Shown piece after piece: positions 3,640-42,883 of a DNA stretch of 64,000 nt (within the stretch, counting starts at the first letter, position 1; each line of letters opens with the position of its first letter). The translations under genes and the position numbers were made by a program. Source of the stretch: a virus. The stretch lies in the UHGV virus genome UHGV-0028991; one strand, 5' to 3'. The notes below the pieces were generated by a model, which was given only the letters and a program-made list of their open reading frames with translations, was not told the DNA's origin and did not search any database.

Positions 3640-3640
3640 T

Positions 3641-4440: not shown

Positions 4441-4514
4441 TGGTACTGTAAGATAGTGTCGAACTATCGTCTATCGGTTATAAGCCGATTGCTCTTCCGT
4501 TGAGCTATTACAGC
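4441..4514 (-). tRNA. tRNA with anticodon UAU (Ile-like), CCA encoded
   Basis: Hand-folded cloverleaf: acceptor GCUGUAA/UUACAGU, D-arm GCUC-AACGGAA-GAGC, anticodon arm AUCGG-CUUAUAA-CCGAU, T-arm GAUAG-UUCGACA-CUAUC, discriminator A plus CCA. Confidence 0.7.
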
Positions 4515-4626
4515 ATATCCTGCGGTTTTACCCGCAGAATAATATATCGAAAAAGGAGGAGAAAAATGAATTCTTGTCAAGCCAGCCACTTGACATTATT
4601 TATTATAGCATGGCCAATTTCATTTG

Positions 4627-4962: not shown

Positions 4963-5318
4963 TTGACATGCTCTCCATTTCTTGTTTCCTCAAAATATTT
5001 TTCAAATGAAAACCATTGGTCTTTGAATAAATTACCAATAGCAATAACTTTTCCAAACGGACTATCAAATTTAGCCCTGATGCATTTGCCTTTTAGTTCT
5101 TCCCATGATTCAACGCCGACCGTTTTCATGAGTTCGATAATTGCACCATAGCCATCGCTCGATTCATACCTGCCTGGCTCTGCACACCATCTGTCAAGAA
5201 CATATCCGCCATAACCACAACCCCACCCATTGCCTTCCATGATAACATAGGCGGTTAAGCATCCGTGATCTTCGCCAAGTTTTGTACTGGTGATTTTGGC
5301 ATTTAATATCTCATTCAT
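4959..5318 (-). CDS. hypothetical Gly/Trp/Cys-rich protein (about 119 aa)
   Basis: ORF with GGAG RBS upstream of MNEILNAK. Confidence 0.35.
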   Translation of the reverse strand: MNEILNAKITSTKLGEDHGCLTAYVIMEGNGWGCGYGGYVLDRWCAEPGRYESSDGYGAIIELMKTVGVESWEELKGKCIRAKFDSPFGKVIAIGNLFKDQWFSFEKYFEETRNGEHVK

Positions 5319-5664
5319 TCTTACCACTCCTCAATTCATTTACGGCTTCCACAAGCTCATTGATTTTATCTATAATGGTTGCATGCAATCCGTTAGAGCA
5401 ATGCGGCAACTCTTCAATTTCTTCTAGTTGTTGTTCTTTTGTAAAATCATATTTACCAATACGGTTAAATAAAGCTTTTAATGGTTCGATAGTCCCATTA
5501 AAGTTCATCTCGGGATTGCGCGTCGTTTTTACTTTTATTTGATAAAAAATATCGCCATCGTCATTAAGGCTCTGTCTTTTAATGCTTGTTATGTAACCAA
5601 CTCTTCCAGATGCTGTTTCTACATAATCACCGACTCGAAAATTATATTCTTTGTTTGCTTTCAT
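5311..5664 (-). CDS. hypothetical protein (117 aa)
   Basis: ORF; an N-terminal VGDYV...GRVGYI stretch looks like an SH3/KOW-type beta motif. Confidence 0.35.
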   Translation of the reverse strand: MKANKEYNFRVGDYVETASGRVGYITSIKRQSLNDDGDIFYQIKVKTTRNPEMNFNGTIEPLKALFNRIGKYDFTKEQQLEEIEELPHCSNGLHATIIDKINELVEAVNELRSGKNE

Positions 5665-5683
5665 TGTTGCTTAAGCCTCCTTG

Positions 5684-6014
5684 TTAAATACGAAATGAGA
5701 CTGGTGCGGTGCGCGAAATCACACTATCAATGCTCCATAAATCACAACACGCCTTTTCGTATGCTTCATCAAAGATGTCCTCTTCGATAAAAATCATGAA
5801 ATACTTACGCGAACGCAATGTCTTAAATGTGCTATATTCATATATCCATGCCATTTGTCCGCTTGATGATTGCATTCGCCATTCTCCCTTGCCCTGCCAC
5901 ATTGGACAGAAGCTATATCTGAATTCGAGATATTTCACAATGTCATGGACCGACTCTGTGTTTTTACAAACAAATGCAACACAGCTTATAAGTGGTCGTT
6001 TGTTGTTATTCTTC
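5684..6014 (-). CDS. hypothetical protein (about 110 aa, start MKNNNKRP)
   Basis: Internal ATG chosen so the overlap with the upstream gene is minimal. Confidence 0.3.
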
Positions 6015-6326
6015 ATGCGCATTCTCCATGTCCGCAAAATATCTATTGACCATTTCGCAAAACACCGTGTTGTGTGAATCGTTCGCAAGTTCTTTTAGTC
6101 TACAATAGGCACTCTGCTCTTCTTCTTCCGTGTATGGCAGGAGAATAAAATCCCCGTCGGATGATATTTTTACCTTTGGAACTACCGTTCTAAGACTGCC
6201 AATTTCATTACCCTCATTGTCTAAGAGCGGGCGCTTGCCAACAACAATAGCAGTTCCGTCGCTGTTATACACATAAAATGCGCCCTGAAAAAGTTCAAGA
6301 ATAGAATCAAACGCATCTCTTATCAT
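6006..6326 (-). CDS. hypothetical protein (106 aa)
   Basis: ORF in operon. Confidence 0.35.
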   Translation of the reverse strand: MIRDAFDSILELFQGAFYVYNSDGTAIVVGKRPLLDNEGNEIGSLRTVVPKVKISSDGDFILLPYTEEEEQSAYCRLKELANDSHNTVFCEMVNRYFADMENAHEE

Positions 6327-6332
6327 TGTTCG

Positions 6333-6644
6333 TCATCTCCCCCCACTTCTACAAGCATCCATAAATTCGCACCACTTTAGAATATACTTATCAAGCCCGT
6401 CTTCCCAATCTTCCATCAATCGCATGCCGACAGACTCAATTTCCCAACACGGCTCTTTCTCATTATATCGCAATGTAGCCACGGAATAACACGACCGCGT
6501 TGTTACGATTTCTTTCTGCTGAGTAATGCTCAATACTTTCATTGGTTTATGGTCATACCACTTAATCAAATCAAAGCTGTTTGGGTCAGTATGTCCATCT
6601 AAGAATTGTGTTGGTTTAATTTCAAATTTATCTCTGAACAGCAT
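6333..6644 (-). CDS. hypothetical protein (103 aa)
   Basis: ORF in operon. Confidence 0.35.
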   Translation of the reverse strand: MLFRDKFEIKPTQFLDGHTDPNSFDLIKWYDHKPMKVLSITQQKEIVTTRSCYSVATLRYNEKEPCWEIESVGMRLMEDWEDGLDKYILKWCEFMDACRSGGR

Positions 6645-6941
6645 TCAAACCTCCTCTGGCAAGCCACCATAGACATCAACCGATTGAATATCTTGAATGC
6701 CAAGAATACGAACATAATCCTCGCCGTCAAGAACATCGTTCAGCCAACCGACACGCACATCGCCATTTGCTTCAATAAGCGGAAACGCAATCGCATTAAA
6801 ATTCGACCACAGTTTACCATCGTGTGATGTCTCGAGCATAACAATTACTTGGCATGACCCGTGTTTATCCCAAAACAAACGAACATACGAATCAATGCTT
6901 GCCTGCATAGACATGCCCCTATGCTGTTTCAATTCAATCAT
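6645..6941 (-). CDS. hypothetical protein (98 aa)
   Basis: ORF in operon. Confidence 0.35.
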   Translation of the reverse strand: MIELKQHRGMSMQASIDSYVRLFWDKHGSCQVIVMLETSHDGKLWSNFNAIAFPLIEANGDVRVGWLNDVLDGEDYVRILGIQDIQSVDVYGGLPEEV

Positions 6942-6953
6942 TTCGTCGCCTCC

Positions 6954-8594
6954 TCACTTGAAAATATCGTCCCAGTCAACATTGCCGATATCTGCCTTAT
7001 GTGAAATTTCAAACTTCCTAACAATCGCCTGAATTTTCTTTTTGCTCATGTATTCGTTAATGCTCAATTCAAATAGGCACTCAACTTGGCATGAGCCATA
7101 AGCATGTGTTTCGGCTTGTTCTGCTATATCATTTGATGCCATGAAGTACAGAAAATCAAAACCTTCTGATTCAAACTTAATTGTGTTTGTTCTCTTGCGG
7201 TAGACGGTCACTTTTGGGCTGTCAAGCACAACATGAAACACGGGCGCAGGCACATCATTACACATACACTTGGTCTGCTCTAACAAATTTTCGACCAATG
7301 CAATATCAATATCTTTAAGTGCCAAATCACAATCACAAAGTTCCAAAGTATCAGCCAAAAGCTCATTTTGATACTTTGCCCATTCAATGAATTTGTCATA
7401 GTCCTGCTTCTTAATTGTGATGCCCGCAGCTGCATCATGCCCTTGCACCCTACACAACTTGGAAGAATTAAGCAAATCCATGATTTCATTGGGCGCACGC
7501 ATTGAGCCTGAATATGATTTGTCTGACTGCTCTCGCAAGACTAATGTGGGCTTGTGGTAATTGCTCAAAATGCTGTTTGCATACAGCCCGGTGTATGGTG
7601 CCCATTGTTTGTCAACAAAGCTAACCATAAACGGTCCCGCTTCTTCAGGTGGCGAATCTTCAGACATTGCTTTTGTTGCATTTGCCTGTACTGTTTTAGC
7701 CGTCCGCCCTGCATGGATTGCATCTGAGAAATCAATCTCGCCAAGGAACGCCCTGACAAACAACTCAATATCTGAATCTTCAACTCTTGTCAACGCATTA
7801 GCAATTGGGGCAATGCTCCATCCGATTGACTTTGCGCTTCGGTCTCCTTTTGCAAGACGGTCGTATAGAAATTGCAAAAATTCATTTTCAACTCTGTTAA
7901 GCCCTGTGCGCAAAATTGCAATATTTTCAATCCCACGAATCGAACACATATCCGAAACAATACTTGCTGCGCCCATATCCCAATAATACGGCGGGATAAT
8001 ATTATTTGCATTGCAATATGCTATAATGAATTTTATTGTTACACATGTGCCAGACAAATCACGATTGACTAAATCGTCTTTTTGCAAAAACGGATTTACA
8101 ATTGTCGCATATGGATTTTTCTTTGTCGGCTTGTGATGGTCGAGGACTAAAATTGTGCAACCGCTATTGCACAAAATTTCAGCATTCTTGCTCGGGTCTG
8201 TTCCTGCGTCGGGCACAATCAGCAATTCGGTTTTGTAATCCCAAATTTGCTTTGCGGCTTCTTTTGTAATTCCATGCTTTTTGCCTTTGTGTGTGACAAG
8301 ATTAAATTTTACATTTTGCCTTTTCAGAAAATCGCACATGACCGCAGAGGACAGAATGCCGTCAAAGTCTGCATCGGCTAAAACCGAAATTGTTTTTTGA
8401 TTTTCAATTGCTGATTTCAAGATTGCAATTCCCTGCTTGGTCGGCTCATCTAAAATCGGATTTTGAATATCAGACTCGCCCGCTGAAATCCATTTCTCAG
8501 GCTCGGCAACTCCACAGGCAATCAAATGTTCAAAAACCAAATTTCCAAAATCAATTTCAGATTCTAACTTCTTAATTCGCTTTTCAATTTTCAC
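6954..8594 (-). CDS. DHH-family phosphoesterase (RecJ-like exonuclease or nanoRNase-like), 546 aa
   Basis: ADADFDGILSSAV (DHH motif I and II region), LVLDHHKP (the DHH motif itself) and VQGHDAAAG (DHHA1 GGGH-type motif). Confidence 0.7.
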   Translation of the reverse strand: MKIEKRIKKLESEIDFGNLVFEHLIACGVAEPEKWISAGESDIQNPILDEPTKQGIAILKSAIENQKTISVLADADFDGILSSAVMCDFLKRQNVKFNLVTHKGKKHGITKEAAKQIWDYKTELLIVPDAGTDPSKNAEILCNSGCTILVLDHHKPTKKNPYATIVNPFLQKDDLVNRDLSGTCVTIKFIIAYCNANNIIPPYYWDMGAASIVSDMCSIRGIENIAILRTGLNRVENEFLQFLYDRLAKGDRSAKSIGWSIAPIANALTRVEDSDIELFVRAFLGEIDFSDAIHAGRTAKTVQANATKAMSEDSPPEEAGPFMVSFVDKQWAPYTGLYANSILSNYHKPTLVLREQSDKSYSGSMRAPNEIMDLLNSSKLCRVQGHDAAAGITIKKQDYDKFIEWAKYQNELLADTLELCDCDLALKDIDIALVENLLEQTKCMCNDVPAPVFHVVLDSPKVTVYRKRTNTIKFESEGFDFLYFMASNDIAEQAETHAYGSCQVECLFELSINEYMSKKKIQAIVRKFEISHKADIGNVDWDDIFK

Positions 8595-8599
8595 TTTCT

Positions 8600-9180
8600 A
8601 ATTTCCATTTCCGAATTTCAATTTTGATTTTTCATTTTGTATTATAGCATTTTAATTTTGCTTTGTCAATACTATTTTCAAATTTCCAAAAATAATTTTT
8701 GATTTTCTGTTTTCAAAACTCAAATTCTATTTTCTATTTTGTATTTCGGTATTTATATATTATTATTCTGCTATTTGATATTTGATATTAGATAGTTGAT
8801 ATTATATATATTATATTTTAATTATAATATTATAATTATATAATTTAATTTATTATAATAATTATTATATACAATAATAAATAATAAAACTAAATTTATA
8901 ATTTCTTTTCTTTGGTTCTTTCTTTTCTTTTTTTTGTTTTCTCATTTGTAAAATCAAAATCAAAAATCAATTTTCTAATTTTGATGTTGGATACATGCAA
9001 TTAAAATCGTAATAAACCGTATTATTTTTCACTGTATGCATGTTTTATATCAATAGGGTAGTATCTATGTACCTATATTGTTTCATGCGCTTATAGCTTA
9101 AAATAATAGTGTTTATGCATATGCCATATTGTATGTGTATACATATATATGTATTATATGGGGATATTCGTGCGCACGCA
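8600..9180. repeat. AT-rich repeat region with TGATATT-like direct repeats
   Basis: GC is well below 20% here. Repeated elements include tttgatatttgatattagatagttgatatt, ataat/tataat runs and the motif TTCTTTGGTTCTTTCTTT near 8907-8926. Confidence 0.6.
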
Positions 9181-13613: not shown

Positions 13614-13874
13614 TTATTTATGTCCGGTTCGGTCTGCCACCTCTTTTCTGAGGTATTTTAGATAGAACAGCGCTTTATCAATGTCTTGTAGCCCGTTTTT
13701 CTTTTTAAAGCGCCATGTATATTTTATTACATTGGCAACACAGACGGCTTCAATTCCTTGTTTGTCTACGGTTGCAGCTTTTATTGCGTCAAGACATTCA
13801 ATTCCGCCTTGCGTGTAATGAGATGGATGCTGCACCATATCGTCCTTGGGTTTGGTTGTTTCAGATTTTTTCAT
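13614..13874 (-). CDS. DUF3310-like small phage protein (about 86 aa, start MKKSETTK)
   Basis: Contains the HPSHY motif characteristic of the DUF3310 family; GGAGGAAAG RBS upstream of the internal ATG. Confidence 0.5.
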   Translation of the reverse strand: MKKSETTKPKDDMVQHPSHYTQGGIECLDAIKAATVDKQGIEAVCVANVIKYTWRFKKKNGLQDIDKALFYLKYLRKEVADRTGHK

Positions 13875-15003
13875 TGCTTTCCTCCAATTCTTCAAGGTCT
13901 TTATTTCCATATCGGACTTCTTGTCCGTATATGTTCTTTAATGCGTCAACTGCCTCTTCAACAGTGATATAGAAGAATTCTCTGTTTGGCGATACGCGCT
14001 TAGAGTCGAAATGTGCATGCATCTTAGATTCAATGTCAAATGCATCATCACAGAAGCAATAAGCATTAAGCGCAAACGGCTCAGGAAGTGAGGACGAGCT
14101 GAGCTCTCGCACGCGCGTATAAGGAGACAATCTCCTTGTAACGCCAATTTTCTGAATTCTGGGCAAGGACGGTGAAGAAATAACATACACAAATCCCGCT
14201 TTTTTATTTCTTGCTCTGTACTGCAAGCTTGCAATTCTGCGGTCAATGTTGGTTATGTTTTGCTTTAAGACTCTTGCCTCTTCGTCGTTGAGCGTGCGAC
14301 CATATGCAAGTTCCATTGATAGGCGTTCTTCTTTGAGCTTTCTTGTTTCGGCTTCAATTTCAAGTAGCAGTTGTTCCTGTTCTTTTAACAGGCGTTTTTC
14401 TTCTCTGAGTTTAATCCGTTCTGCTTTTGCCCGTTCTTTGATAAGGACATTAAGGCGCATAAGTTCAATGCGTAGGCTTGCATATTTTGAGTTTAATGAA
14501 ACGCCTACCATTTTTGTTTTGCGTTGTAGAGTATTAAAGCGGTCGGTTGCATGTTTCATCGCAAGCGCAAGAGGACTTACAGAGCAAGTCTTTTCTTTCT
14601 GTTCCACGTAAGCGTTGAATGCATACAGGCACCCAGTCGCAACAGCCTTTTGCAAATCATTTCCTTTTGCTCTTGAGCCTTCGATAGTATATTGCTCGTC
14701 AACTCTCCACAGACCATCTGCTGAAAGTAACTTTCTTGTTGAGTAATCACTGCCCGCCAGTTCTTGTATTTGCATTAAGACGGTCGCTTTCTTGCTTTCA
14801 AGTTCAGAGCAAGATAAATTACTGGGTATGATAGTCCTAATTCCAAAGTCTGACAGAACTTCTTGTGTTTCTATTGAATCACGCAGAAGTTTCAGGCGCT
14901 CATTGAGCTCGTTGGTTTCGGCGTTTAATCTTGCTTTCGTTGATTCAAGCGAAGCGACTTGGCGCTCAAGCGTTTTCTTTTCTGTTTTTAATTTATCAAA
15001 CAT
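13861..15003 (-). CDS. DUF4041 plus T5orf172 (GIY-YIG-like nuclease) domain protein, about 380 aa
   Basis: N-terminal coiled-coil (DUF4041-like). C-terminal GFVYVISSPSLPRIQKIGVTRRLSPYTRVRELSSSSLPEPFALNAYCFCDDAFDIESKMHAHF matches the T5orf172 (MUG113-type) domain. AGGAG RBS before MFDKLKTEKK. Confidence 0.65.
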   Translation of the reverse strand: MFDKLKTEKKTLERQVASLESTKARLNAETNELNERLKLLRDSIETQEVLSDFGIRTIIPSNLSCSELESKKATVLMQIQELAGSDYSTRKLLSADGLWRVDEQYTIEGSRAKGNDLQKAVATGCLYAFNAYVEQKEKTCSVSPLALAMKHATDRFNTLQRKTKMVGVSLNSKYASLRIELMRLNVLIKERAKAERIKLREEKRLLKEQEQLLLEIEAETRKLKEERLSMELAYGRTLNDEEARVLKQNITNIDRRIASLQYRARNKKAGFVYVISSPSLPRIQKIGVTRRLSPYTRVRELSSSSLPEPFALNAYCFCDDAFDIESKMHAHFDSKRVSPNREFFYITVEEAVDALKNIYGQEVRYGNKDLEELEESNEKI

Positions 15004-15033
15004 TTTATTTCTCCTAACCATTCTTTGAAAATG

Positions 15034-15062
15034 ATTATATCACAAATATGCAAACTTGTCAA
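15034..15062 (-). promoter_or_regulatory. consensus sigma-70 promoter (TTGACA, 17 nt, TATAAT) driving the T5orf172 and DUF3310 genes
   Basis: Minus-strand reading TTGACAagtttgcatatttgtgaTATAAT is an exact consensus. Confidence 0.6.
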
Positions 15063-19556: not shown

Positions 19557-20447
19557 GTGCCGACAGCAAAAAAGAAAGCTCCGACCAAAAGCATTAGGAC
19601 GGATAGCAGGAATGTGCGGCTGTGCATTGCCTGTGGGTCAAGAAAGCCAATAAGCGATTTTTACTCAACGACATCCGTTCCCAACATGCAATTTTTTGTG
19701 TGCCGCAGGTGTGGCAAAAGATTACTTAAAGACCACACAGATAAGGTAGAAAAGCCGATGGCAGCACTGTGGCTTGTTTTGGCGCAAATGGGCGTACCGT
19801 TCATTTTAGAGGCGTGGTACGCCGCTTCGGAAATGTATGAAAACGACAAAACGGGTGATTTAATTACATTCTACTTGATTTCGCTTGCTAACTTAAATCG
19901 CGTATATGAGGGCTTTTGGCAATCAGATGCCATGTTGTCCGACATGATAAAGACGGGCGTTGGTGGCGAAGTTAAGGATATTGACCGCCATCTCGCAGAC
20001 GCAAACAAGTATAGAGCGCGTTGGGGCGATTATACAGCCGATGATTGGGATTGGCTTGAAAGAGAATATTTAGACTATACGCGCGACCTCGAAGCCATAT
20101 CTGTTTCGGCGGAAAAGGCATATAGGTCTTTATGCAAATGCAATTTGCGCTTTAAGAAAGAAAGCGAGGCAGGCGAAGAAACAAAATCTACAACTGATGA
20201 AATCCTGAAATGGATGAAATTGTTGCGCATAGATGATTTCAGAGACAATACAAAATCGGACGAAGATAGATACATAGACCACTTGGCATGGAAATTTGAG
20301 AATACTGAGCCTGCTGAATTGACGGATGAGGAGCGGTATAAGGATGTTAAGGGCTATGAGAAAATATATAATGATTGGATGCGGTCAATGCAGAATATGA
20401 TTGCGGGGACGAAGAGCTACCCCAATATTCCTAAGGAGCAGTTGTAA
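19557..20447 (+). CDS. putative terminase small subunit or DNA-binding packaging protein (296 aa)
   Basis: GTG start after GGAGGTG RBS. N-terminal Zn-ribbon (CIACG...CRRCG). Its stop overlaps the start of the large terminase exon 1, which is the usual small-terminase position. Confidence 0.4.
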   Translation: MPTAKKKAPTKSIRTDSRNVRLCIACGSRKPISDFYSTTSVPNMQFFVCRRCGKRLLKDHTDKVEKPMAALWLVLAQMGVPFILEAWYAASEMYENDKTGDLITFYLISLANLNRVYEGFWQSDAMLSDMIKTGVGGEVKDIDRHLADANKYRARWGDYTADDWDWLEREYLDYTRDLEAISVSAEKAYRSLCKCNLRFKKESEAGEETKSTTDEILKWMKLLRIDDFRDNTKSDEDRYIDHLAWKFENTEPAELTDEERYKDVKGYEKIYNDWMRSMQNMIAGTKSYPNIPKEQL

Positions 20448-21331
20448 TGCCGACCGCAAGAGAAAACGAACAATTCCGCAAGTCCGAAAATGTCAAAAAG
20501 TGGATAACTTATTATCGCAGGAATTGGGACTTATTTGCTGAAGAAGTTCTTGGCATTAAGCTATATCCTGTGCAGAAGCTGAAATTGCACATGATAGGTG
20601 TTGCCGACGAATATTGGGACTTTTCGTCTCGTTCAACGGCGAAGTCTTTTATTGTTGGTGTTGCCGCATTTTGTGCAATGAGTTTATATCCGCATTCAGA
20701 AATTGTTGTTACATCATCTTCTATCCCGCAGTCTGCAAGACTTGTAAGAGATAAGATGATAAAAGAAATCATTAAGAAATATTCGCCATATTTGAAGTAT
20801 TTGTATGAGAAGGGCTATTTGACAGTTAAAATGCTTGATGAGGGCGTTTTCGTCTTAACGAACACATTAAATGAATCAACGACAACGGTCGCTGTGTGTT
20901 CTGAAAATGCTCGTGGTATGCGTTCCACATTTACGATATATGAAGAGACGCGATTGCTGAAGAAGTCAATTCTCGACTCTGTATTTGAGCCGATGGGGCA
21001 CGAGCGTCCTGCGCCGTTTACACTTGACCCTAAGTATAAAACAGACAGGTGGATAAAGGCGGCAAAATCTTGCTATATTTCATCTACTCGGTATGAGTGG
21101 GAATGGTTTATCAGAGAATACAGAAAATGCGTTGAGGGCTATTATACATCAAAGCACGAGAAGTACATTCCTATGGCAGAGGACATTTATACTGCAATTC
21201 AAGAAGGAAGCCGAACATGGGCGGACTATCGAAAGGCAAAGAAGAAAATGTCCAAAGCGGATTTGAAAAGGTTCGCATTAAACATATTGAATTGCTGGAA
21301 TACCCTTAGAGTTTTATCAGCTACAACATAA
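20447..21331 (+). CDS. terminase large subunit, exon 1 (ATPase domain, 294 aa)
   Basis: Deviant Walker A FSSRSTAKSF (PBSX-type GRGSGKS analogue), Walker B TFTIYEE. The ORF ends with an in-frame stop exactly where intron-like sequence begins. Confidence 0.6.
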   Translation: MPTARENEQFRKSENVKKWITYYRRNWDLFAEEVLGIKLYPVQKLKLHMIGVADEYWDFSSRSTAKSFIVGVAAFCAMSLYPHSEIVVTSSSIPQSARLVRDKMIKEIIKKYSPYLKYLYEKGYLTVKMLDEGVFVLTNTLNESTTTVAVCSENARGMRSTFTIYEETRLLKKSILDSVFEPMGHERPAPFTLDPKYKTDRWIKAAKSCYISSTRYEWEWFIREYRKCVEGYYTSKHEKYIPMAEDIYTAIQEGSRTWADYRKAKKKMSKADLKRFALNILNCWNTLRVLSATT

Positions 21332-22547
21332 GCATGAAATAAGGCTAAGTGTGATATGCGAGAAAATGATAGAAATTGGGCAATCAGCAGCGAAGCCTCG
21401 AATAGAGGAACGTTCAACGACTATCCCGCAAGGGAGTACACAACAAGCGATTGGTTGTGGAAGTGGTATGCCTTTGCACAAAAGCAAAGTGAAGATATAG
21501 TCTTATCTGCGCGGAAACGCGCAGTCTTTCAAAAAAATGAGAGAAACGAGGAGTAGCGACCTATGCTTAAAAGAGTAAATGGGGGACAGCAAGTTGCAAA
21601 TTGTTTTTGTTTGTCTGCAAACAAACAAATTACCCCATTTGTTCTTGAATAATAATCTTTGTTGCAGGAAGGATTTTATAGCATGAATATTTTTGAGGTT
21701 AATGATAAAAATAAATTCTCTTTTAGTTGTATTTATTTATGGCAAAATCTAATAAATGGGAAGGTTTATGTTGGGCAGACGGTGGATTTTTATGCCCGCA
21801 TGAAACAATATTTACGCGAAGACACAAGTAGGCGTATCTGCATGGCTATTAAAAAGTATGGATTTGATAACTTTAGTGTTGAAGTGTTGGAAAGAGACGT
21901 GTCGCACCAAAATTTAACACAACGCGAGCAGTATTGGATAGATTTTTATGATAGTGCCAACGAAGACGTCGGATACAACATATGTCCGGTAGCGGAAAGC
22001 ACAAGAGGATATCACCACAGAGAAGAAGACAAGAAGAGAATGAGCGAAATAGCCAAAAAACGTTTCAAAGAACACCCAGAACAAATAAAACGCGGGAAAG
22101 AGAATCACATGTTCGGCAAAAAACATTCCGAAGAGACAAAAAAGAAAATAAGCCAAAGTATAATGGGCAACCAAAATGTAAAAGGCAAAACATGGAAGCT
22201 TTCGGAAGAAATATGTCGTCGTAGGTCGGAGAGGATGAAAGGTAAGAGGAATGGAGTGGGGCACAAATGTCCAGAAAGCGTAAAAGAGCATCTTAGAAGA
22301 TATAATAAAAATCGAATCTGGACAGAGGAGATGCGAGAGCAATCGCGGATTGCACATCTTAACATTGGCGGGAAGAAACTGATGTGTGTCGAAACGGGAG
22401 TCACTTATGAATCCGTGGCTGAAGCGGGTCGTGCCTTGAACAAGGACCCGTCCTCAATTTCTAAGTGTTGTCGCGGGCAACAACGAATCGCATATGGATT
22501 TCACTGGCAATATATATAATTAACCTCAAAAAAAATAGTTTAAAAAA
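21332..22547 (+). mobile_element. group I intron in the large terminase gene carrying a GIY-YIG homing endonuclease gene
   Basis: R-like element GTTCAACGACTATCC at about 21412-21426 and S-like element GAAGATATAGTCTTA at about 21491-21505 (the two strands of P7). P/Q-like AAATTGGGCAATCAGCAGCG at about 21381-21400. The homing endonuclease ORF lies downstream of S; boundaries are approximate. Confidence 0.6.
21683..22519 (+). CDS. GIY-YIG homing endonuclease (intron-encoded)
   Basis: CIYLWQNLINGKVYVGQTVDFYARMKQY is a GIY-YIG motif. NUMOD3-like repeats GKKHSEETKKKIS and HKCPESVKEHL. C-terminal NUMOD1/HTH-like VAEAGRALNKDPSSISKCC. Confidence 0.75.
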   Translation: MNIFEVNDKNKFSFSCIYLWQNLINGKVYVGQTVDFYARMKQYLREDTSRRICMAIKKYGFDNFSVEVLERDVSHQNLTQREQYWIDFYDSANEDVGYNICPVAESTRGYHHREEDKKRMSEIAKKRFKEHPEQIKRGKENHMFGKKHSEETKKKISQSIMGNQNVKGKTWKLSEEICRRRSERMKGKRNGVGHKCPESVKEHLRRYNKNRIWTEEMREQSRIAHLNIGGKKLMCVETGVTYESVAEAGRALNKDPSSISKCCRGQQRIAYGFHWQYI

Positions 22548-23528
22548 ATGTTTTCAATGGAGATGGAAAATGAAACACAGGGTAGTCCCGAAGGTGCATT
22601 CTTTAGCCTAAAGAATTTTAAGGACAATCAAGAAATTCCAGAGGCATATGTTCCGCCTACCGATACACAAGTGTTGGCGAACACAAAGCCGCCGTTCAGA
22701 GAAAAACAAGCGGACGAAATACGGCTTGTCGGCGTTGACTACGCATTTGCGAACACAACATTTAAGACGGGATACGGCAACGATAATACAATTATTGAGT
22801 GCTGGTCGGCTGTCTGGAAAAACGGTCGGTTCATTCGTAGTCTTGAATATATGGAACAATGGCCCGCATCGGACAGTACAGGCGCACAATGGCGCGTTCG
22901 TGAGCTGTTTTGGGACTATAATGCGGACTTCATTGTAAACGACCTTAGAGCAGGCGGAGAAACACTATATAACCTTATGACCGAAAAAAGGACGCATCCA
23001 AGGCGCGGCTATATGTGGGATTCACGAGGATTGACAGTCGCTCAGAATTTTAACTATCACCTCGTAACAGAATCAAAGCTTGCCGACTTGCGTATGCGGA
23101 CGGTCGATAAGGATGCTGTTCCGTGTATTATTCCTGCTCAGGGCTCGGCACAAAAGAATGGTGTTTGGTGGCTTGCACTTAGAAAGCATCTTGAATGCAA
23201 TGACATAAAGATGCTTATATCTATGGCAGACAAGCAGCAAGAGCTTGAAGATTCGGGCGAGTATTTCAAATTGACCTCAGAAGAATTGGCAGATAAGCTT
23301 GCCCCTTATGGCGAGACAGACCTGCTTATTCAGGAGGCAATCAAACTTAACACAGAAATAAAGGGCGATAACTTATATCTTAAAGAAGACAACAAGGCGA
23401 CTAAAGACCGTGTTGTTGTTATGTCTTATGTCAACATTGTAATTGATAAAATCGAAATGGAATGGAATAAACGCCTGACCAATGACGATGAAGATTATGA
23501 TATTGACGATTTACAACTTGTATATTAA
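22548..23528 (+). CDS. terminase large subunit, exon 2 (RNase H-like nuclease domain)
   Basis: IRLVGVDYAF is the typical nuclease-domain motif with a catalytic Asp. The reading frame is open from 22539. Together with exon 1 it gives a large terminase of roughly 620 aa. Confidence 0.6.
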   Translation: MFSMEMENETQGSPEGAFFSLKNFKDNQEIPEAYVPPTDTQVLANTKPPFREKQADEIRLVGVDYAFANTTFKTGYGNDNTIIECWSAVWKNGRFIRSLEYMEQWPASDSTGAQWRVRELFWDYNADFIVNDLRAGGETLYNLMTEKRTHPRRGYMWDSRGLTVAQNFNYHLVTESKLADLRMRTVDKDAVPCIIPAQGSAQKNGVWWLALRKHLECNDIKMLISMADKQQELEDSGEYFKLTSEELADKLAPYGETDLLIQEAIKLNTEIKGDNLYLKEDNKATKDRVVVMSYVNIVIDKIEMEWNKRLTNDDEDYDIDDLQLVY

Positions 23529-35706: not shown

Positions 35707-36215
35707 GCCAAACCGTAAACACATTTGGTGCATTGCGCGCCGAGATGAAAGAGCGCCTAAAGCCCGTGCTTGAATATGTAATAGAAAAAATTGCGGACTA
35801 TAACAAAAATGCAATAAGCTTCTCTGTATATGCTAAGGGAAATCCAGATGTATACGAGCGGACATTTGAATTTCTTGATGCATGGTCAACTGAAGAAAAA
35901 TTTGAGTCCGACGCATTATATAGCACGCATTTTTATGATTCAAGCAAAATTAGGACAAGAGGCCGTGGGCAACATACATCTGCCATAGACGGTACAGATA
36001 TTGCCTATGCGCTTGCCGACATTATCTTTGAAGGCAAGGCGGGCAGAATATTTGGTCGCGGATTTTGGACTAAACGCAGAAATGCATGGGGCATGCTTGA
36101 CAAATATGTAAGCAAGCGGCGCCTAAAACAATGGGTTGAGGAAGGAATGAGACAAGCGGGGCTTGCCTATAAATTCACGGGCAAATACCCCGAGCAATCT
36201 CACTATGAAGTATGA
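35703..36215 (+). CDS. hypothetical protein (170 aa)
   Basis: Translationally coupled to the neighbouring genes. Confidence 0.3.
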   Translation: MSQTVNTFGALRAEMKERLKPVLEYVIEKIADYNKNAISFSVYAKGNPDVYERTFEFLDAWSTEEKFESDALYSTHFYDSSKIRTRGRGQHTSAIDGTDIAYALADIIFEGKAGRIFGRGFWTKRRNAWGMLDKYVSKRRLKQWVEEGMRQAGLAYKFTGKYPEQSHYEV

Positions 36216-36709
36216 TCACATTATCACTGGATTGCAGCACATCTTGCACGGGATATGCGGTTTTCAATGAAGATAAGCTCATTCATTATGGCTGTATTAA
36301 GCCCGAGGGAGATAGTTGGCGAGAAAGGCTGACACATGAAGGTGCGCCATTGTCTGAATTGATTAAGACCTATCGACCCGATAGGTTAATCGTAGAGGAA
36401 GTGCCGTTGAAGGCGGCAAATGTTAAAGTGTTGATGATTCTTGGGGCTGTTCAAGGATATGTTCTTGGGATAGCCGCATCTCATCATGTACCGATTCAAT
36501 TTGTACTTCCTCAGAAATGGCGTAGCGATATAGGAATTTTTGACGGCACAAGAGATGGCACGAAGCGAGATGTTCTTAAAAGGAAGTCCGTGGAGAAAGC
36601 CAACGAATTGTTCGGACTGGACTTGAATTGGGTGTCTCCGTCAAGCAGTAAGAACGATGATGATATAAGCGATGCCATTCTTTTGGGTTGGAGCCAAATT
36701 CATAAATAA
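36212..36709 (+). CDS. RuvC-like Holliday-junction resolvase (165 aa)
   Basis: LSLDCSTSCTGYAVF (the RuvC N-terminal catalytic Asp motif), an acidic residue in LIVEEVP, and C-terminal DDISDAILLG. Confidence 0.65.
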   Translation: MITLSLDCSTSCTGYAVFNEDKLIHYGCIKPEGDSWRERLTHEGAPLSELIKTYRPDRLIVEEVPLKAANVKVLMILGAVQGYVLGIAASHHVPIQFVLPQKWRSDIGIFDGTRDGTKRDVLKRKSVEKANELFGLDLNWVSPSSSKNDDDISDAILLGWSQIHK

Positions 36710-36723: not shown

Positions 36724-37152
36724 ATGGCGAATAAAAACACGAGCTGGAATATTGGCGTAGGTATTGAGATAAAGACAAGCACAAGCGAAATTCAAAAGAA
36801 ATTGAATGAAGCGGCGAAAAATGTCAATATCAATATCAAGGCAAAAGGGGCTAAGGAAGCATCTGACGGAATAAGCAATCTGTCAAAGAACATGAACGAA
36901 GCCTCGTCCAGCGCGAAGAATTTTGAATTAACATATCAAGCGGCAAACATGATTATGGAGAAGAGCATAGAAATTATTAGGTCTATGGTCTCTGAAGTCT
37001 ATACTATGAATGCCGCGCAGGTCGAATTAGCAAAGGTCACAGATTTGTCCGGCGAATCAATGGACGAATATGTGAGCAAGTTGACCGACATGGGAGCAGA
37101 AGTTGCTAAGACGGGTAAACTATGGACGGGAGCCCGTGTGATGGGATGGTAA
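36724..37152 (+). CDS. tail tape-measure protein, exon 1
   Basis: Sequence typical of the N-terminus of TP901-type tape-measure proteins (LAKVTDLSGESMDEYVSKLTDMGAEVAKTG). An in-frame stop is followed by intron-like sequence. Confidence 0.6.
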   Translation: MANKNTSWNIGVGIEIKTSTSEIQKKLNEAAKNVNINIKAKGAKEASDGISNLSKNMNEASSSAKNFELTYQAANMIMEKSIEIIRSMVSEVYTMNAAQVELAKVTDLSGESMDEYVSKLTDMGAEVAKTGKLWTGARVMGW

Positions 37153-37443
37153 ACCAGCACAGAGAATTGTTCAAAACCCAGTAAAACCTAAAGCCTGTTT
37201 AACTACAACATGGGGATGAAATAAGCCCAAGTGTGAATGTGGGAAACTGTTAAAAATAAGCAGGATGGCATATGGTCGAAAGACCTAAGTGCAATTTATC
37301 CCGAATATTATACATTATTTGGGACAAACAATGGTAGATTGGGCGCGAAGTCCCGAACAGGGATGTGTCAAGAGACTCTATAAGTTCGACCCCTCCAAAT
37401 TAAACAGGGTGAAGAAATAGTCCAGAATATTTTGAAAAAGGTA

Positions 37444-37472
37444 TTGACAATCTAAAAGTTATGTGTTATAAT
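37444..37472 (+). promoter_or_regulatory. perfect consensus sigma-70 promoter inside intron 1 (TTGACA, 17 nt, TATAAT)
   Basis: TTGACAatctaaaagttatgtgtTATAAT lies about 30 nt upstream of the RBS and ATG of the intron ORF. Confidence 0.6.
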
Positions 37473-37501
37473 GGCATCAACAAAGAAAGGTGGGCTTGAT
37501 T

Positions 37502-37735
37502 ATGTTGTTAATTGCAGTTCCTTTGATGATGCTTTATTGCGTCTGTTATGGCATTGCTTGTTTCTTCAGGCATGTTGTTTTGGGCATCCCTTTTGATAAG
37601 GACGTTGCCAAGAAAAACAATCCCGAGCAATATAAAAAATGGGAAGAAGAAGATAGGCAGGCTGCAGAGCAGTACAGAAAAGAAGAAAAAGAGCATAACG
37701 ATTGGGGATTTATTGATTACTCCAAGAAAGATTGA
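37502..37735 (+). CDS. intron-encoded small membrane protein (77 aa), not a homing endonuclease
   Basis: AAGGTGGG RBS 8 nt upstream of the ATG. MLLIAVPLMMLYCVCYGIACFF transmembrane helix followed by a K/E-rich cytoplasmic tail. No nuclease motif. Confidence 0.5.
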   Translation: MLLIAVPLMMLYCVCYGIACFFRHVVLGIPFDKDVAKKNNPEQYKKWEEEDRQAAEQYRKEEKEHNDWGFIDYSKKD

Positions 37736-37748
37736 ATAAAAGTCCCAG

Positions 37749-37955
37749 ATGGTGGAAAGCGCTGCCCAATTTGCGAAAGCTGGATTTAATGAAACCGATG
37801 CTGCGCAATTAGCGAAAGTTTCCTCCATGTACCAAAACATTGCCGATGAGCAACTTTCGGCGGGCGAAGCATCTGAGTTTATTATTTCTCAGATGAAAGC
37901 ATTTAATATTACTGCTGAGGAAAGCTTACATATTGCTGATGCGGTTTACTTTTAA
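37749..37955 (+). CDS. tail tape-measure protein, exon 2
   Basis: MVESAAQFAKAGFNETDAAQLAKVSSMYQNIADEQLSAGEASEFIISQMKAFNITAEESLHIADAVYF resembles the tape-measure core domain; stop codon at the exon/intron junction. Confidence 0.55.
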   Translation: MVESAAQFAKAGFNETDAAQLAKVSSMYQNIADEQLSAGEASEFIISQMKAFNITAEESLHIADAVYF

Positions 37956-38322
37956 TTGGCCGCTACGAGGTGAATTGTCGGGGACGAGGGTTCAGCGCCC
38001 TATCTGCGCAATTTTATGCGTGGATGCCTAAAGATTTGAACACCAACCTATCATGGTGACATAGATGGGGGCTTAGAGTAATTAACTAAGGCATGGTAAA
38101 AGGTTCAAATATATATGGTCAATCCGCAACTAAGCGTCTGCATTGCAGATGAAAGCTCACAGACTATCCCATAGGTCTTAACAGACAATAGGAGTACGGC
38201 CCAAGCCAAGGGTGGGTGAGAACCCCTTAAATGGAAGCGCCTCGCTTTGGTATTTTACCAAGGAAGATATAGTCGGGTCTTATAAGAAATTTATAAGCGT
38301 TTGAATATTCAAACGGTCGTAG
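37956..38322 (+). mobile_element. group I intron 2 in the tape-measure gene (no ORF)
   Basis: All four conserved elements are present: P GAATTGTCGGGGACGAGGGTTCA (about 37972-37995), Q AATCCGCAAC (38121-38130), R GCTCACAGACTATCC (about 38155-38170), S AAGATATAGTCGGG (about 38264-38277). Confidence 0.65.
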
Positions 38323-38466
38323 TTGGCGGCTACGGCAAACTTATATCGCAATAACGTATCAAATAATATGTCTGTTTCTTCAGCAGATTTAGCTCGAAAC
38401 CTCGGAAATATGTCCGCCGCAATGTCTGTCGGCGGGAACACGATGGAAGAGAGCATTGGCTTAGGT
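38323..38466 (+). CDS. tail tape-measure protein, exon 3
   Basis: Frame open from 38323. Encodes ...NMSVSSADLARNLGNMSAAMSVGGNTMEESIGLG (tape-measure-like), then a stop at the junction. Confidence 0.5.
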
Positions 38467-38760
38467 TAATAGGTCAATTAAAAACCTATAAATTGACGGG
38501 AAGTTCCTTAGAGCTCTATATACTAAACCGTATTAGTAATAATGCGGCGGAGCAAGTAATGACTGCTGTATAGTAACAAATATAGAGATTGGATAATCCG
38601 CAGCAAGTTATCAATAGGTCATTGATAACTGTTCAACGACCAGTAAGCCCTACTAATTCAGTAGGCATACTCGCAAGCGCGGGGAAACATAGGTGAAAAA
38701 GATATGGTCTAATCTCTGTCGAAAGGCAGAGGGCTAATAAAGCCGTTTAGAGAGTAGCGT
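38467..38760 (+). mobile_element. group I intron 3 in the tape-measure gene (no ORF)
   Basis: P AATAATGCGGCGGAGCAAG (about 38541-38560), Q AATCCGCAGC (38595-38604, exact consensus), R CTGTTCAACGACCAGTA (about 38631-38647), S AAAGATATGGTCTAA (about 38707-38721). The 3-prime boundary is approximate. Confidence 0.6.
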
Positions 38761-41731
38761 CTCTAAGCAAATAAATTATGTATTAACTGGCATTACCGAG
38801 ATTACTCGTTCAGCGGCATCCGCATCTCGTGCATTAGTCACAATCCAAAGCAGATTTAATCAGATTGTAGATGAATCTTCAAGCACTGGTCAGAATCTGT
38901 TAAAATGGTACACAAAGCACGGAATTGCAGTTAAGGATGATGCTGGGCAGTTAAGGTCGCTGTATGATGTTATGTCCGACCTTGCGCCTAAGTGGAACTC
39001 ACTTACCAAGAATGAGCAATCTTATTTCATGCAACAGGCGGCGGGTGCCCGGCAATCTCAAAATCTCGCCGCATTGCTTTCTAACTTTAAGGGCGTTCAA
39101 GAAGCAACTGCCCTTGCATATGATTCTTCAGGTTCGGCAGCAGCAGAAAATGCAAAAGTCCTTGAATCTCTTGATGCAAAAACAACCGCATTAAAAGCAA
39201 CATGGCAAGATTTTGCAAACAAAACCATTGACAGCGAATTAGTTAAGTCTTTGCTTAACTTGGCTAATGGCGCGTTAAAAGTATTGAACACCGAAGCAGG
39301 CAGAACTTTAACACAATTTGTTTTGCTGAGCGGCGTTTTCACTGGGCTCGGCGGAATTATTGCGCAGGTCATTCCGGTCGCAATAAAATCGATAAAAGCA
39401 TTTACATCTGTTTTGGCTGGCGCGACAACTGGCGTAAAAGCATTGCAGGCGTCTGTGCCTGTCATTGGCATTGCAATGGCGGCGCTAACGGTTATGATAG
39501 GGCTTGTTAAAGATGCTTATGATGCGCAGTATGGCACAATCAACAAGATAAACAAGTCCATAGAAACAATTAACGCCACCTATACCGATGCCACAAATGT
39601 TGCTAAGGCAAATGCCGAACAGGCAAAATATTTGGTTGGGGTAATTTCAGACCTTAACAAGGTTGAGAATATGTCTACGAGTGAGGCGTATAAGTACAAA
39701 AGCGCTGTAGACCAACTTAATAAAATTTACCCCGACTTGAATCTCAGCATTGGCGAACACACTGGCAAAATCCAAGAAGATACTGGTGCAATTTATAAAC
39801 GCATCGAAGCGATGAAGCAAGAGGCGCTTCAAGCGGCGTTGCAAGAAAAGCAAGCGGCTTATTATGGGCAAATAATAGAGTCAAAAGCATCTCGCGAATC
39901 TGCAGGCGATGAACTACGCGCTGAGATACAAGAGCTCCAAGAAAAGCTAAAACAACTCAGAGACGCGTTCGGATTCGATATAACGGGACTCGGAGAAAAC
40001 CTTGATGTCGATGTCTCTTTAATGGATACGGATAGTCTGATTCGCTTTTACGAGAATTTCCTTCGATATGGAACATTCCCGAGCTATATGTCAAAAGAGA
40101 TTAGCGCTACCATTGAAGAAATAAGGCAGTATGACGAGGCGATTGAAAACGCGGAAGGAAAATTAGAAGGAGCTAATGATGCGGCTCAATCGCTCGGGGA
40201 AACTGTTGTAAACCTTAACACCCAAGCAGGCAAAAATGCAGGAGCAACAAAAACTCAGCGAGATAATGTTGACAATCTCGTAAAAGCACAAAATGCATTA
40301 AACAAGGCAATTCAGGACTACAATGCTTATGGCGGTTTGCAATCTGAAACGCAAGAAGCATTAGACGAAGCGTTGCCTGGTCTAAACGAACTGCTTTATG
40401 ACGAAACAGGCGCGTTGACGTCTGCTGGTAAAGCCGCGTTGCGCGGAAGCAAGGAATTGGCGCAATTCGTTCTGTTGCAAAAACAAGAGGAATTACAGGC
40501 TCAGAAAACGGCATTGTCGCACGCCGAAGCCGCAAAAGCAGAGGCGCTAAGATTCAGGACAAGGCAGAGTTTAATGGGGCAAACACAGCTTTTGTCAATA
40601 GCTGAAGAAGCCGAAGCTGAAGCAGCCCGACAGGATGCATTAGCAACCGCTGCAGAACAGAACATAAAAAATATCGAAGATGAGATTGCGTGGCTGGAAC
40701 AACTGCTCGCAACATACAGCTCTGGTTCGAGTGCCGCATCTTCCGCCGCCGACGCTTACAAAAAAGCATTTACAGACTGGCTTGCATATAAAGACCATCA
40801 ACTTGCAATGGACGAAATCACAGAAGAGCAGTATTATGCTGAGCTTACTGAAATGGTCGATAAATTCTTTAAGGGCAGAGCTGAATATCAAGAAGAATAT
40901 TGGCAATACTCTGAAAAGATTTATGCGTATGAAAAGAAGCGCATGCAAGAGCTGGTCGAAGAATCGACTAAGGCGGTCGAGGACGCAGTTGATAAAATCA
41001 ACGAAAAGTACGATTCTGAGTTGTCGCGGCTTGAAGAAGTCAACGATGCCCTGTCCGACCAAATTGAATACGAGAAACTGCTCGATGAAATGGCTAAGGC
41101 AAGGGAGCAGAAAAAGCTTGTATACAAAGACGGTCGATTCCAGTATGTGCAAGATGTGGATGCAATATCTGCCGCGCAGGCTAAGCTTGATGAATATAAT
41201 CGCAACAAGGGCTTAGAAGCAAGTAAAGCTGATATTGAAGCCCGCAGAAAAGCAGAGGTCAGACAGACCATTCTCGACAAGATGCAGGCTAATAGCGCAG
41301 CATGGGCAACATCAAGTAGTCCCGCTGAGCGTGAGGCATTGCATAATGCAAATGTTGAGCTGGCGAAACTGCTTGAAGATAATTCGACCTATGATGCCGC
41401 AACGGGCAAATGGTCAAGCTATGCGGGCGGCACACTTGGTGCGGCTGGCGGAATGAGCCTTGTCGGAGAGAATGGTCCCGAAATGCGTATTCTTAATCGC
41501 GGCGACGGCATACTCACAAGTGGCGTTACTAAGAATTTGTTCGCATGGGGCAGCACGTCTCCGAGCGATTTTGTATCTGCACTCAAGGGCTTAATGGGCT
41601 TTAAGCTTGGCAATTCCAGCAACACTACTGTGAATGTCAGCAACCTTGAATTGCCCAATGTAACAAATGCAAGAGAGTTTGTAACCGGGCTGAAAAATCT
41701 TGCACTTCAATATGCTTACGAGAGGGGATAA
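38741..41731 (+). CDS. tail tape-measure protein, exon 4 (main body)
   Basis: Frame open from 38741; first ATG at 38972. Long Ala/Gln-rich coiled-coil, a transmembrane-like segment (LLSGVFTGLGGIIAQVIPVAI), and a C-terminal region typical of tape-measure proteins. About 990 codons. Confidence 0.7.
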   Translation, partial: SRLESSVSKQINYVLTGITEITRSAASASRALVTIQSRFNQIVDESSSTGQNLLKWYTKHGIAVKDDAGQLRSLYDVMSDLAPKWNSLTKNEQSYFMQQAAGARQSQNLAALLSNFKGVQEATALAYDSSGSAAAENAKVLESLDAKTTALKATWQDFANKTIDSELVKSLLNLANGALKVLNTEAGRTLTQFVLLSGVFTGLGGIIAQVIPVAIKSIKAFTSVLAGATTGVKALQASVPVIGIAMAALTVMIGLVKDAYDAQYGTINKINKSIETINATYTDATNVAKANAEQAKYLVGVISDLNKVENMSTSEAYKYKSAVDQLNKIYPDLNLSIGEHTGKIQEDTGAIYKRIEAMKQEALQAALQEKQAAYYGQIIESKASRESAGDELRAEIQELQEKLKQLRDAFGFDITGLGENLDVDVSLMDTDSLIRFYENFLRYGTFPSYMSKEISATIEEIRQYDEAIENAEGKLEGANDAAQSLGETVVNLNTQAGKNAGATKTQRDNVDNLVKAQNALNKAIQDYNAYGGLQSETQEALDEALPGLNELLYDETGALTSAGKAALRGSKELAQFVLLQKQEELQAQKTALSHAEAAKAEALRFRTRQSLMGQTQLLSIAEEAEAEAARQDALATAAEQNIKNIEDEIAWLEQLLATYSSGSSAASSAADAYKKAFTDWLAYKDHQLAMDEITEEQYYAELTEMVDKFFKGRAEYQEEYWQYSEKIYAYEKKRMQELVEESTKAVEDAVDKINEKYDSELSRLEEVNDALSDQIEYEKLLDEMAKAREQKKLVYKDGRFQYVQDVDAISAAQAKLDEYNRNKGLEASKADIEARRKAEVRQTILDKMQANSAAWATSSSPAEREALHNANVELAKLLEDNSTYDAATGKWSSYAGGTLGAAGGMSLVGENGPEMRILNRGDGILTSGVTKNLFAWGSTSPSDFVSALKGLMGFKLGNSSNTTVNVSNLELPNVTNAREFVTGLKNLALQYAYERG

Positions 41732-42001: not shown

Positions 42002-42883
42002 ATGGCAAACATGAACGCAATTGATGTTTCGTTGTATCAGACTATTTATGACGCGAACGCACTGAAGCAGGACGGCATTAAGCTGTGCATGATTAAGGCT
42101 TCGCAGGGCAGATATTTGAACGGCTATGGTAGCTTCTTCAAAGACAGAAAAATGGACGAGCACGCACAGAAATGCATTAACGCCCATTTGCCAATTGGCT
42201 TCTATCATTTTCTTTGCGCATTTAATGTACAGGAAGCCAAGCAGGAAGCCAAGAAGTTTTTGAAAGCAATTAAGCCGTATGCGCAGTATGTGTCTTATGT
42301 GGCTCTCGACTGCGAGAATTATAACAACACGGCGTTGTTGTGTCAGAATAGAACGCAGTTGACCGAGTCTTGTAACGCATTTATGAAAATTTGCGAAGAC
42401 GAGGGCTATCTGCCCATGCTGTATACAAACCCCGACCATCTGAGAAACAAGCTTTATGCCGAGCGCATTAAGTACCCGCTGTGGGTAGCACTGTACGGTG
42501 AGGCTAAGCCGCAGTATGACGCAATGATTATGTGGCAGAAGGGTCCTGTTAGTCCGAACGGTGTGACGGCTAATACTGACGGAAACATCTGCTATATTGC
42601 GGATGCCGCACTCGCTGTTGTAGAACTTGCAGAAAAGGGATTTATTGCATCTCCGACATATTGGATTAACCAACTTGATAATGTTAAGTGGTTGCCTGAA
42701 TTGTTTGTTCAGGTAAACGGCGTGTTTAATTATCGCATTGGTCGTTCTAAGACGGTCGATGAAGCATGCAACTATATGAAAGAGCAGGGCGCAATGAACA
42801 GCCCTGAATACTGGATTGCACAGTCCAAAAAGGTCAAGCACCTTGCCGATTTGCTGAAGAACTTTGGTGGCGGCAGAAAATAA
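42002..42883 (+). CDS. GH25 muramidase (lysin) with two C-terminal cell-wall-binding-type repeats (293 aa)
   Basis: IDVSLYQ...KASQG...GFYHF is the GH25 (Cpl-1-type) catalytic signature. C-terminal approximate repeats ASPTYWINQLDNVKWLPELF and MNSPEYWIAQSKKVKHLADLL. Confidence 0.7.
   Translation: MANMNAIDVSLYQTIYDANALKQDGIKLCMIKASQGRYLNGYGSFFKDRKMDEHAQKCINAHLPIGFYHFLCAFNVQEAKQEAKKFLKAIKPYAQYVSYVALDCENYNNTALLCQNRTQLTESCNAFMKICEDEGYLPMLYTNPDHLRNKLYAERIKYPLWVALYGEAKPQYDAMIMWQKGPVSPNGVTANTDGNICYIADAALAVVELAEKGFIASPTYWINQLDNVKWLPELFVQVNGVFNYRIGRSKTVDEACNYMKEQGAMNSPEYWIAQSKKVKHLADLLKNFGGGRK

Follow-up and report, generated by a model that had tools for sequence, protein, structure and literature searches.

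The tape-measure gene of the virus genome UHGV-0028991 (positions 36724-41731 on the + strand of the 64,000-nt stretch analysed here, referred to as the window) is interrupted three times, and the interruptions are very probably group I introns that are spliced out of the tape-measure RNA. The observations on which this reading is based are the anatomy of the three elements, their junctions with the exons, the homology of the flanking protein sequence, and the presence or absence of the same elements in related genomes. A first-pass annotation made from the DNA alone had already proposed four exons and three group I introns. This proposal is supported by the splice-site helices P1 and P10 and the ribozyme cores, by the restored reading frame, and by the alignment with homologs.

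Restored reading frame and uninterrupted homologs

The list of open reading frames (ORFs) contains four frame pieces of the gene, at 36724-37152, 37749-37955 and 38323-38469, and an open frame at 38741-41731. In-frame TAA stops are located at 37150-52, 37953-55 and 38467-69; the first-pass annotation had placed the first two correctly and the third 3 nt too early, at 38464-66. The 5' splice sites precede the respective stops by 33, 7 and 5 nt. At the nucleotide level, cuts after U37116, U37945 and U38461, combined with cuts after G37742, G38348 and G38780, are the only ones that yield the products defined by the homologs. The earliest ATG of the fourth piece is at 38972, but exon 4 itself starts upstream of this codon, at 38781.

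Joining the four exons (Table 1) produces a frame of 3660 nt without internal stops, encoding 1219 amino acids (aa) with a predicted mass of about 134 kDa. The predicted spliced product matches PF10145 in a single stretch covering positions 4-201 of 201 with 76.5 bits (cut-off 33.2) and TIGR01760 with 96.8 bits (cut-off 28.8). With both curated cut-offs exceeded, it is assigned by sequence to the TP901 family of tape-measure proteins. The unspliced pieces alone reach at most 23 bits, which is under the cut-off, and they align to successive parts of the same profile. The homology is therefore collinear across the pieces, in agreement with the earlier observation that tape-measure protein sequence resumes after each gap.

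A search of a large protein collection with the concatenated pieces yielded 120 homolog clusters. Homologs that run through the junctions align with the spliced product without gaps, and the residues encoded by the intron ends are absent from them. At the three junctions, they read AKTG-x-x-MV, HIADAV-NNVSNN and ESIGL-LTGITE. Sites 2 and 3 are continuous in intron-free alleles of close relatives, while site 1 is continuous in more distant uninterrupted relatives. Aligning the concatenated exon translation with TP901-family proteins, as had been suggested for fixing the splice sites, thus gave a full-length match, and the uninterrupted homologs defined the sites.

Most of the homolog clusters (106 of 120) consist of truncated ORFs that start within exon 2, 3 or 4, and the third site, that of intron 3, is occupied in 59 of the 120. 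On the basis of these truncations, interrupted tape-measure genes are the rule in this phage group. The description of three introns in one structural gene as unusual was therefore overstated, and published precedents also exist.

Splice-site helices, ribozyme cores and alternative explanations

All three 5' exons end in a U that forms a U.G wobble with the guide sequence in P1. The pairings are ACGGGU/GCCCGU (P1) and GGGA/UCCC (P10) for intron 1, GCGGU/GCCGC and AUUG/CAAU for intron 2, and UUGGCU/GGUCAA and GUUAAUA/UAUUAAC for intron 3. P10 is 4, 4 and 7 bp long, respectively, and in each case is formed by the guide-sequence bases that immediately precede the P1 strand. A terminal (omega) G is present in all three introns, and the positions of P1 coincide with the junctions defined by the homologs. 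The core helices P3, P4, P6, P7 and P8 are all found in introns 1 and 2, and all except P8 in intron 3. The Rfam model RF00028, which had been proposed as a check, matches all three gaps with 51.5 bits for intron 3, 34.6 bits for intron 2 and 22.5 bits for intron 1; only intron 3 reaches the gathering score of 50 bits. No other Rfam family scores in the gaps. The conserved ribozyme motifs were found at the places quoted in the first-pass annotation, and the matches to RF00028 and to the model R1 described below put them beyond chance.

For intron 1, the earlier annotation had listed R-like and S-like elements only. Both are present (R at 37367-81, S at 37411-23), but they belong to a complete core with pairing in P1, P2, P3, P4, P5, P6, P6a, P7, P8, P9 and P10. 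P4 is formed by CCCAGU/AUUGGG, and the 3' half contains P7 (GACU..AU/AUAGUC), P3' (AGUUC with GAAUU), P8 (CCCU/AGGG) and an 8-bp P9 closed by GAAA. RF00028 sees only the 3' part of this intron, as a partial match. By BLASTN, 37174-37371 has homologs in other phages, including an RNA labelled 'Group I catalytic intron' in Clostridium phage D-1873, the DNA between two tape-measure coding sequences (CDSs) of Thomasclavelia phage TR-TP1, and sequences in Vibrio phage ICP1 and a Staphylococcus phage.

Covariation in this family was assessed with an alignment of nine homologous sequences spanning the helices P4, P5, P5a, P5b, P6 and P6a. In this P4-P6 domain, 90.7% of the cells are paired and 19 pairs are compensated; none of 500 shuffles reached this level, and slid controls gave 31-46%. 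RNAalifold recovered P4, P5, P6 and P6a from the four outside sequences alone. The covariance model R1 was built solely from four phage introns outside this lineage, one of which is the annotated intron of D-1873. It matches intron 1 at 37160-37381 over the whole model with 127.2 bits (E = 2.3e-20). Elsewhere in the 64 kb, it matches only the intron in the terminase gene (121.9 bits), intron 3 (32.4 bits) and intron 2 (20.8 bits). When RF00028 was applied to the introns of the related loci L014-L017, none was found at E <= 0.01. Since RF00028 misses these introns, a negative Rfam result is uninformative for this class. Intron 1 has, as judged from its pairing and covariation, a complete core, and it belongs to a subtype that RF00028 detects poorly.

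Two candidate elements of intron 1 were rejected. A P3 formed by GUCGAA (37274-79) and UUCGAC was initially backed by a C-G / U.G / U-A series in L003-L005; it was dropped because in L015-L017 the sequence GGUC-GAAA-GACC forms a local P5-domain hairpin whose length varies. The 'P-like' sequence GAAUGUGGGAAAC at 37235 had been considered as P4 and is part of the P5 extension.

Intron 2 contains the motifs P (GAATTGTCGGGG, 37972-83), Q (AATCCGCAAC, 38121-30) and S (GAAGATATAGTCGG, 38263-76), a 7-bp P3, P7, a 6-bp P8 and P9.2. Its RF00028 match has an E-value of 1.8e-6 in the local scan, and the insert after P7 in the Rfam alignment was read by eye as P7.1/P7.2. Over 119 nt, it is 79% identical to the intervening region of the split tape-measure gene of Enterocloster phage CB457P1, and it resembles sequences in many Staphylococcus and Bacillus phage genomes. 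Intron 3 contains P at 38490-502, Q (AATCCGCAGC, 38595-604) and S (AAGATATGGTCT, 38699-710), with pairing in P3, P6, P7, P7.1 and P7.2, and P4 is also present in its core. Between P3' and the 3' strand of P7 there are only ten bases, and the Rfam alignment of this intron has all 59 of the 59 P8 model positions deleted. P8 is also absent from intron 3 in six sister genomes, including a copy with an endonuclease-like ORF. At the same site, L011 has a diverged homolog (5670-6070) with a normal P8, in which P3 and P7 differ from those of the window by compensating changes.

If this reading is right, one gene with four exons would be transcribed late, and three group I ribozymes would excise themselves from the precursor RNA. 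An external guanosine would attack after the U of the P1 U.G pair (after 37116, 37945 and 38461). The freed exon end, with the next exon positioned by P10, would then attack after the G that ends the intron (37742, 38348 and 38780). Ligation would give a message for the TP901-type tape-measure protein of 1219 aa. In phage group I introns, ribosomes must be kept off the folding ribozyme, and the stops 5-33 nt into each intron would release them before folding is disturbed. A message that skipped exon 2 (203 nt) or exon 3 (113 nt) would be out of frame, and a tape measure would result from complete splicing only. The tape measure is required in few copies per virion; this low demand may allow the gene to tolerate imperfect splicing, and hence make it a permissive site for introns.

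Several points weigh against this reading. Both the splicing and its efficiency are deduced from the DNA. Intron 2 remains below the Rfam gathering score (34.6 versus 50 bits), and P10 comprises merely 4 bp in introns 1 and 2. Intron 1 is without P7.1/P7.2, its P7 being followed directly by P3' and P8, and these helices are present in its homologs in L015, L016 and L017. Its P3 has just 5 bp, and its 3' splice site is located 297 nt past P9. A possible 6-bp long-range stem (37448-53/37729-34) could loop out the ORF of this intron and bring the 3' splice site beside P9. The conserved-core helix P8 is missing from intron 3 (38689-38709 in the window), and a search of the literature for a natural group I intron lacking P8 returned unrelated papers only. 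Furthermore, none of the three introns encodes an endonuclease, so that any mobility of their own is hypothetical.

Some of these points would also fit the explanation that at least one of the insertions, likeliest intron 3 or intron 2, is a decayed intron that no longer splices itself, which would leave the phage defective or dependent on a helper. The wholly deleted P8 of intron 3, the score of intron 2 under the Rfam threshold and the lack of an endonuclease gene in the introns of the window are consistent with decay. However, intron 3 in its P8-less form is shared by seven genomes at 98-99.7% identity although their exons have diverged, one of the copies carries an endonuclease-like ORF, and its site is occupied in nearly half of the homolog clusters, as noted above. 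Such a spread is hard to square with a lethal block in an essential tail gene, and the exons are intact and conserved at the protein level. Decay is therefore considered improbable.

An even less likely explanation is that the gene is truly fragmented, either as a pseudogene or with separate polypeptides of about 142, 68, 48 and 919 or more aa that together build the tape measure. Separate ORFs are indeed called in the window and in most relatives. Against this, the breaks are located within a single Pfam domain, the parts of which follow one another in order along the pieces, and the ORF tails encoded by the intron ends are absent from uninterrupted homologs. There is no sensible start codon at the homology boundary for the 38323 piece or the 38741 frame, and every gap contains a ribozyme core with exact P1/P10 pairing. 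Group II introns, inteins, insertion sequences or an assembly chimera, for which no supporting point was found, can practically be discarded, since RF00028 alone among Rfam families scores in the gaps, inteins are excluded by the in-frame stop codons, the same arrangement was assembled independently in several samples, and covariance-model matches together with the splice-site pairings refute them all.

Cargo gene of intron 1 and distribution of the introns in relatives

After its core, intron 1 contains a 77-aa ORF preceded by a Shine-Dalgarno sequence and a perfect promoter that overlaps the 3' strand of P9. The window contains six perfect TTGACA-17-TATAAT promoters, all with the extended -10 TG, compared with a chance expectation of 0.78 when up to 1 mismatch is allowed. 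Five of them are on the minus strand (1780-1808, 3611-3639, 4602-4630, 8641-8669 and 15034-15062), where the region of 1.7-15 kb is taken to be the early region. The promoter of intron 1 is the only one on the + strand, located in the block of structural genes.

The cargo ORF occupies the position after P9 where an endonuclease gene is usually located. Family searches gave no protein family match for the 77-aa product, the only sequences retrieved in two very large protein searches were those of its own clusters (>=92% identity), and no similarity to the endonuclease-like ORFs of the sister introns was found. Among five copies, the variable sites are distributed 3/2/18 over the three codon positions, a pattern that indicates selection at the protein level. 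Taken together, the sequence supports the view that intron 1 carries a real protein gene with its own host-type promoter, encoding a membrane protein and not an endonuclease. It is conceivable, though rather unlikely, that the intron carries host-directed cargo in place of a homing endonuclease, expressed early or in the lysogen from its own promoter; the timing is suggested by the promoter type. One guess is that the 77-aa membrane factor serves superinfection exclusion or host takeover. The only lead for its function is the gene for the HK97 membrane protein gp15, which adjoins the tape-measure gene of that phage. If this were true, a 'moron' would be carried by a self-splicing intron that interrupts an essential tail gene.

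The occupancy of the tape-measure sites was compared in twelve loci from viral contigs and several metagenome contigs. No intron is present in L006-L009 and L012, intron 1 alone is present in L001, and introns 1 and 3 in L003 and L004. The same three introns as in the window were found in two other samples (L020 and L022). An extra ORF-bearing intron interrupts L005 at about codon 139, and L010 and L011 have further insertions near codons 319-334. Matches to the intron models at these other positions are located at 3916-4173 in L005 (codon ~139), at 4661-4850 in L013 (upstream of codon 104), and, as two matches within the 2-kb gap at codons 319-334, at 5993-6608 in L010 and 6334-6949 in L011. 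This distribution indicates at least five insertion sites in the core that is conserved in the tape-measure protein; group I introns of this phage group seem to insert preferentially in this core.

Two of the sister introns carry ORFs of their own, with 330 aa in the P9.1 loop of intron 2 in L020 and 385 aa after P9 of intron 3 in L021. These ORFs form one family with that of L005 and with gp28 of TR-TP1. The L005 ORF has weak DUF2726/RAP-type matches, and those of L020 and L021 have no Pfam match of their own; the family probably represents homing endonucleases. Introns 2 and 3 are 98-99.7% identical between genomes, while the flanking exons are only 86-95% identical, which fits a recent lateral spread of both introns. 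The copies of introns 2 and 3 in the window would be endonuclease-free versions of elements that are in circulation among sister phages together with an endonuclease-like gene. Nothing was found when the phage collection was searched for nearly identical DNA, or when bacterial genomes were scanned for a prophage copy.

In one relative, L014 (IMGVR_UViG_3300038318_000053, 3074-8800), the first ~370 codons of the tape-measure gene are apparently interrupted by six group I introns, with exons as short as ~63-84 nt. R1 matches every exon gap of this gene (27.6-144.5 bits) and RF00028 none. To our knowledge, six introns would exceed any count reported for one phage gene. The number of sites (five or more), the apparent introns (as many as six in one gene), and the coexistence of empty and endonuclease-bearing copies make these phages a good natural system for the study of intron gain and loss.

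Gene neighbourhood and comparison with known systems

Table 1. Features of the interrupted tape-measure gene in the window
Feature	Position	Strand	Description
Tape-measure exon 1	36724..37116	+	Codons 1-131, ends ...AKTG; from ORF list, uninterrupted homologs and P1 pairing
Intron 1, putative group I	37117..37742	+	626 nt, phase 0; ribozyme core 37117-37445, cargo region 37446-37742
Promoter, sigma-70 type	37444..37472	+	TTGACA-17 nt-TATAAT with extended -10 TG; 12/12 match
Shine-Dalgarno of cargo ORF	37486-93	+	AAAGGTGG
Cargo ORF	37502..37735	+	77 aa; one N-terminal hydrophobic helix, charged tail (hydropathy profile)
Tape-measure exon 2	37743..37945	+	203 nt, SQMVESAA...HIADA plus GT of Val199; from homologs and spliced frame
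Intron 2, putative group I (IA-like, with P7.1/P7.2)	37946..38348	+	403 nt, phase 2, no ORF
Tape-measure exon 3	38349..38461	+	113 nt, C of Val199 to first base of Leu237
Intron 3, putative group I (IA-like, with P7.1/P7.2)	38462..38780	+	319 nt, phase 1, no ORF, no P8
Tape-measure exon 4	38781..41731	+	Through stop codon; from ORF list, homologs and spliced frame
Spliced DNA junctions 1-3 (predicted)			GACGGGT/TCCCAGATGG; GATGCGGT/CAATAACG; CATTGGCT/TATTAACTGG
Junction-spanning peptides of spliced product (predicted)			TGSQMVESAAQFAK, HIADAVNNVSNNMSVSSADLAR, EESIGLLTGITEITR

A fourth group I intron, in the region from 21255 to ~22545 on the + strand, splits the gene for the large terminase subunit (ORFs 20447-21331 and 22548-23528). 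RF00028 matches it with 77 bits at 21255-21524, and its ORF at 21659-22519 encodes a GIY-YIG homing endonuclease (PHROG 314, E = 7e-41). The tail module also contains a gene for a RuvC-like Holliday-junction resolvase (36212-36709, +; PHROG 159, E = 2e-16), which immediately precedes the tape-measure gene and keeps this position in relatives. Just downstream among the tail genes is an endolysin-like gene of glycoside hydrolase family 25 (42002-42883, +; PHROG 291, E = 2.5e-44), the product of which may be a virion-associated lysin. The minus strand encodes a tyrosine recombinase (913-1749; Phage_integrase, E = 7e-28), a possible sign of a temperate lifestyle, a protein with a T5orf172/MUG113 domain (13861-15021), and two tRNA genes (4444-4514 and 3776-3861).

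A practical consequence of the introns is that gene callers split the tape-measure gene into three or four 'hypothetical proteins'. Therefore, tail-length predictions and protein clustering will be wrong unless the introns are removed. The annotated genomes of two isolated phages contain comparable cases. In Thomasclavelia phage TR-TP1 (L017, PQ571309.1 23364-28534), the split tape-measure CDSs gp27 and gp29 are separated by gp28, annotated as 'HNH endonuclease'. In Enterocloster phage CB457P1 (L023, OP172753.1 25265-30963), the tape measure is split into CDS 33/34/35 with a 157-aa ORF between. The intervening DNA of both phages looks like unannotated introns, homologous to introns 1 and 2, respectively. 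Unlike in the window, each has a single ORF-bearing interruption at another site of the gene, and the tape-measure protein of the window is only ~29% identical to those of these two phages. They are nevertheless the nearest cultured systems in which splicing could be examined.

The best-described parallel is found in prophages of the Bacillus cereus group, in which the group I introns TMP-IVS1, IVS2 and IVS3 occupy three sites of the tape-measure gene (Tourasse and Kolsto 2008, PMC2504315). These phage-type introns belong to the subclasses IA1/IA2 and mostly lack a complete endonuclease gene, and a maximum of two was reported per gene, for example IVS1 and IVS3a in E33L (PMC2504315). As in the window, the introns interrupt the conserved part of a tape-measure gene encoding more than 1200 aa, their presence varies among related phages, and the guide sequences of related introns are adapted to different sites. 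Both systems have several insertion sites. The window differs in having three introns, a non-endonuclease gene in intron 1 and a P8-less intron 3, and in representing an uncultured metagenome phage whose nearest annotated relatives, with 29% identity, infect Enterocloster.

Three group I introns in one tail gene are also known from Staphylococcus phage Twort, where they interrupt orf142, later identified as a tail tube gene (Landthaler and Shub 1999, PMC22036, cited in PMC11878797). The introns are of the phage IA type, but the interrupted gene encodes a tube protein and not a tape measure. Twort shows exon skipping, whereas no productive alternative product is expected in the window because skipping of exon 2 or 3 shifts the frame. 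In Bastillevirinae, up to three group I introns occur per polymerase or terminase gene, and the authors reported introns only in such genes of DNA metabolism and terminase (PMC11878797). Introns of the Bastillevirinae, T4 (td, nrdB, nrdD) and SPO1 type have endonuclease genes with their own expression signals in peripheral loops (PMC11878797, PMC3984707). They belong to the same ribozyme class as those of the window, the terminase gene of which has such an intron with a GIY-YIG endonuclease, but are mostly located in DNA-metabolism and terminase genes. Compared with these systems, the window is a further example of a known situation, of which the count of three introns, the cargo gene and the missing P8 are variations.

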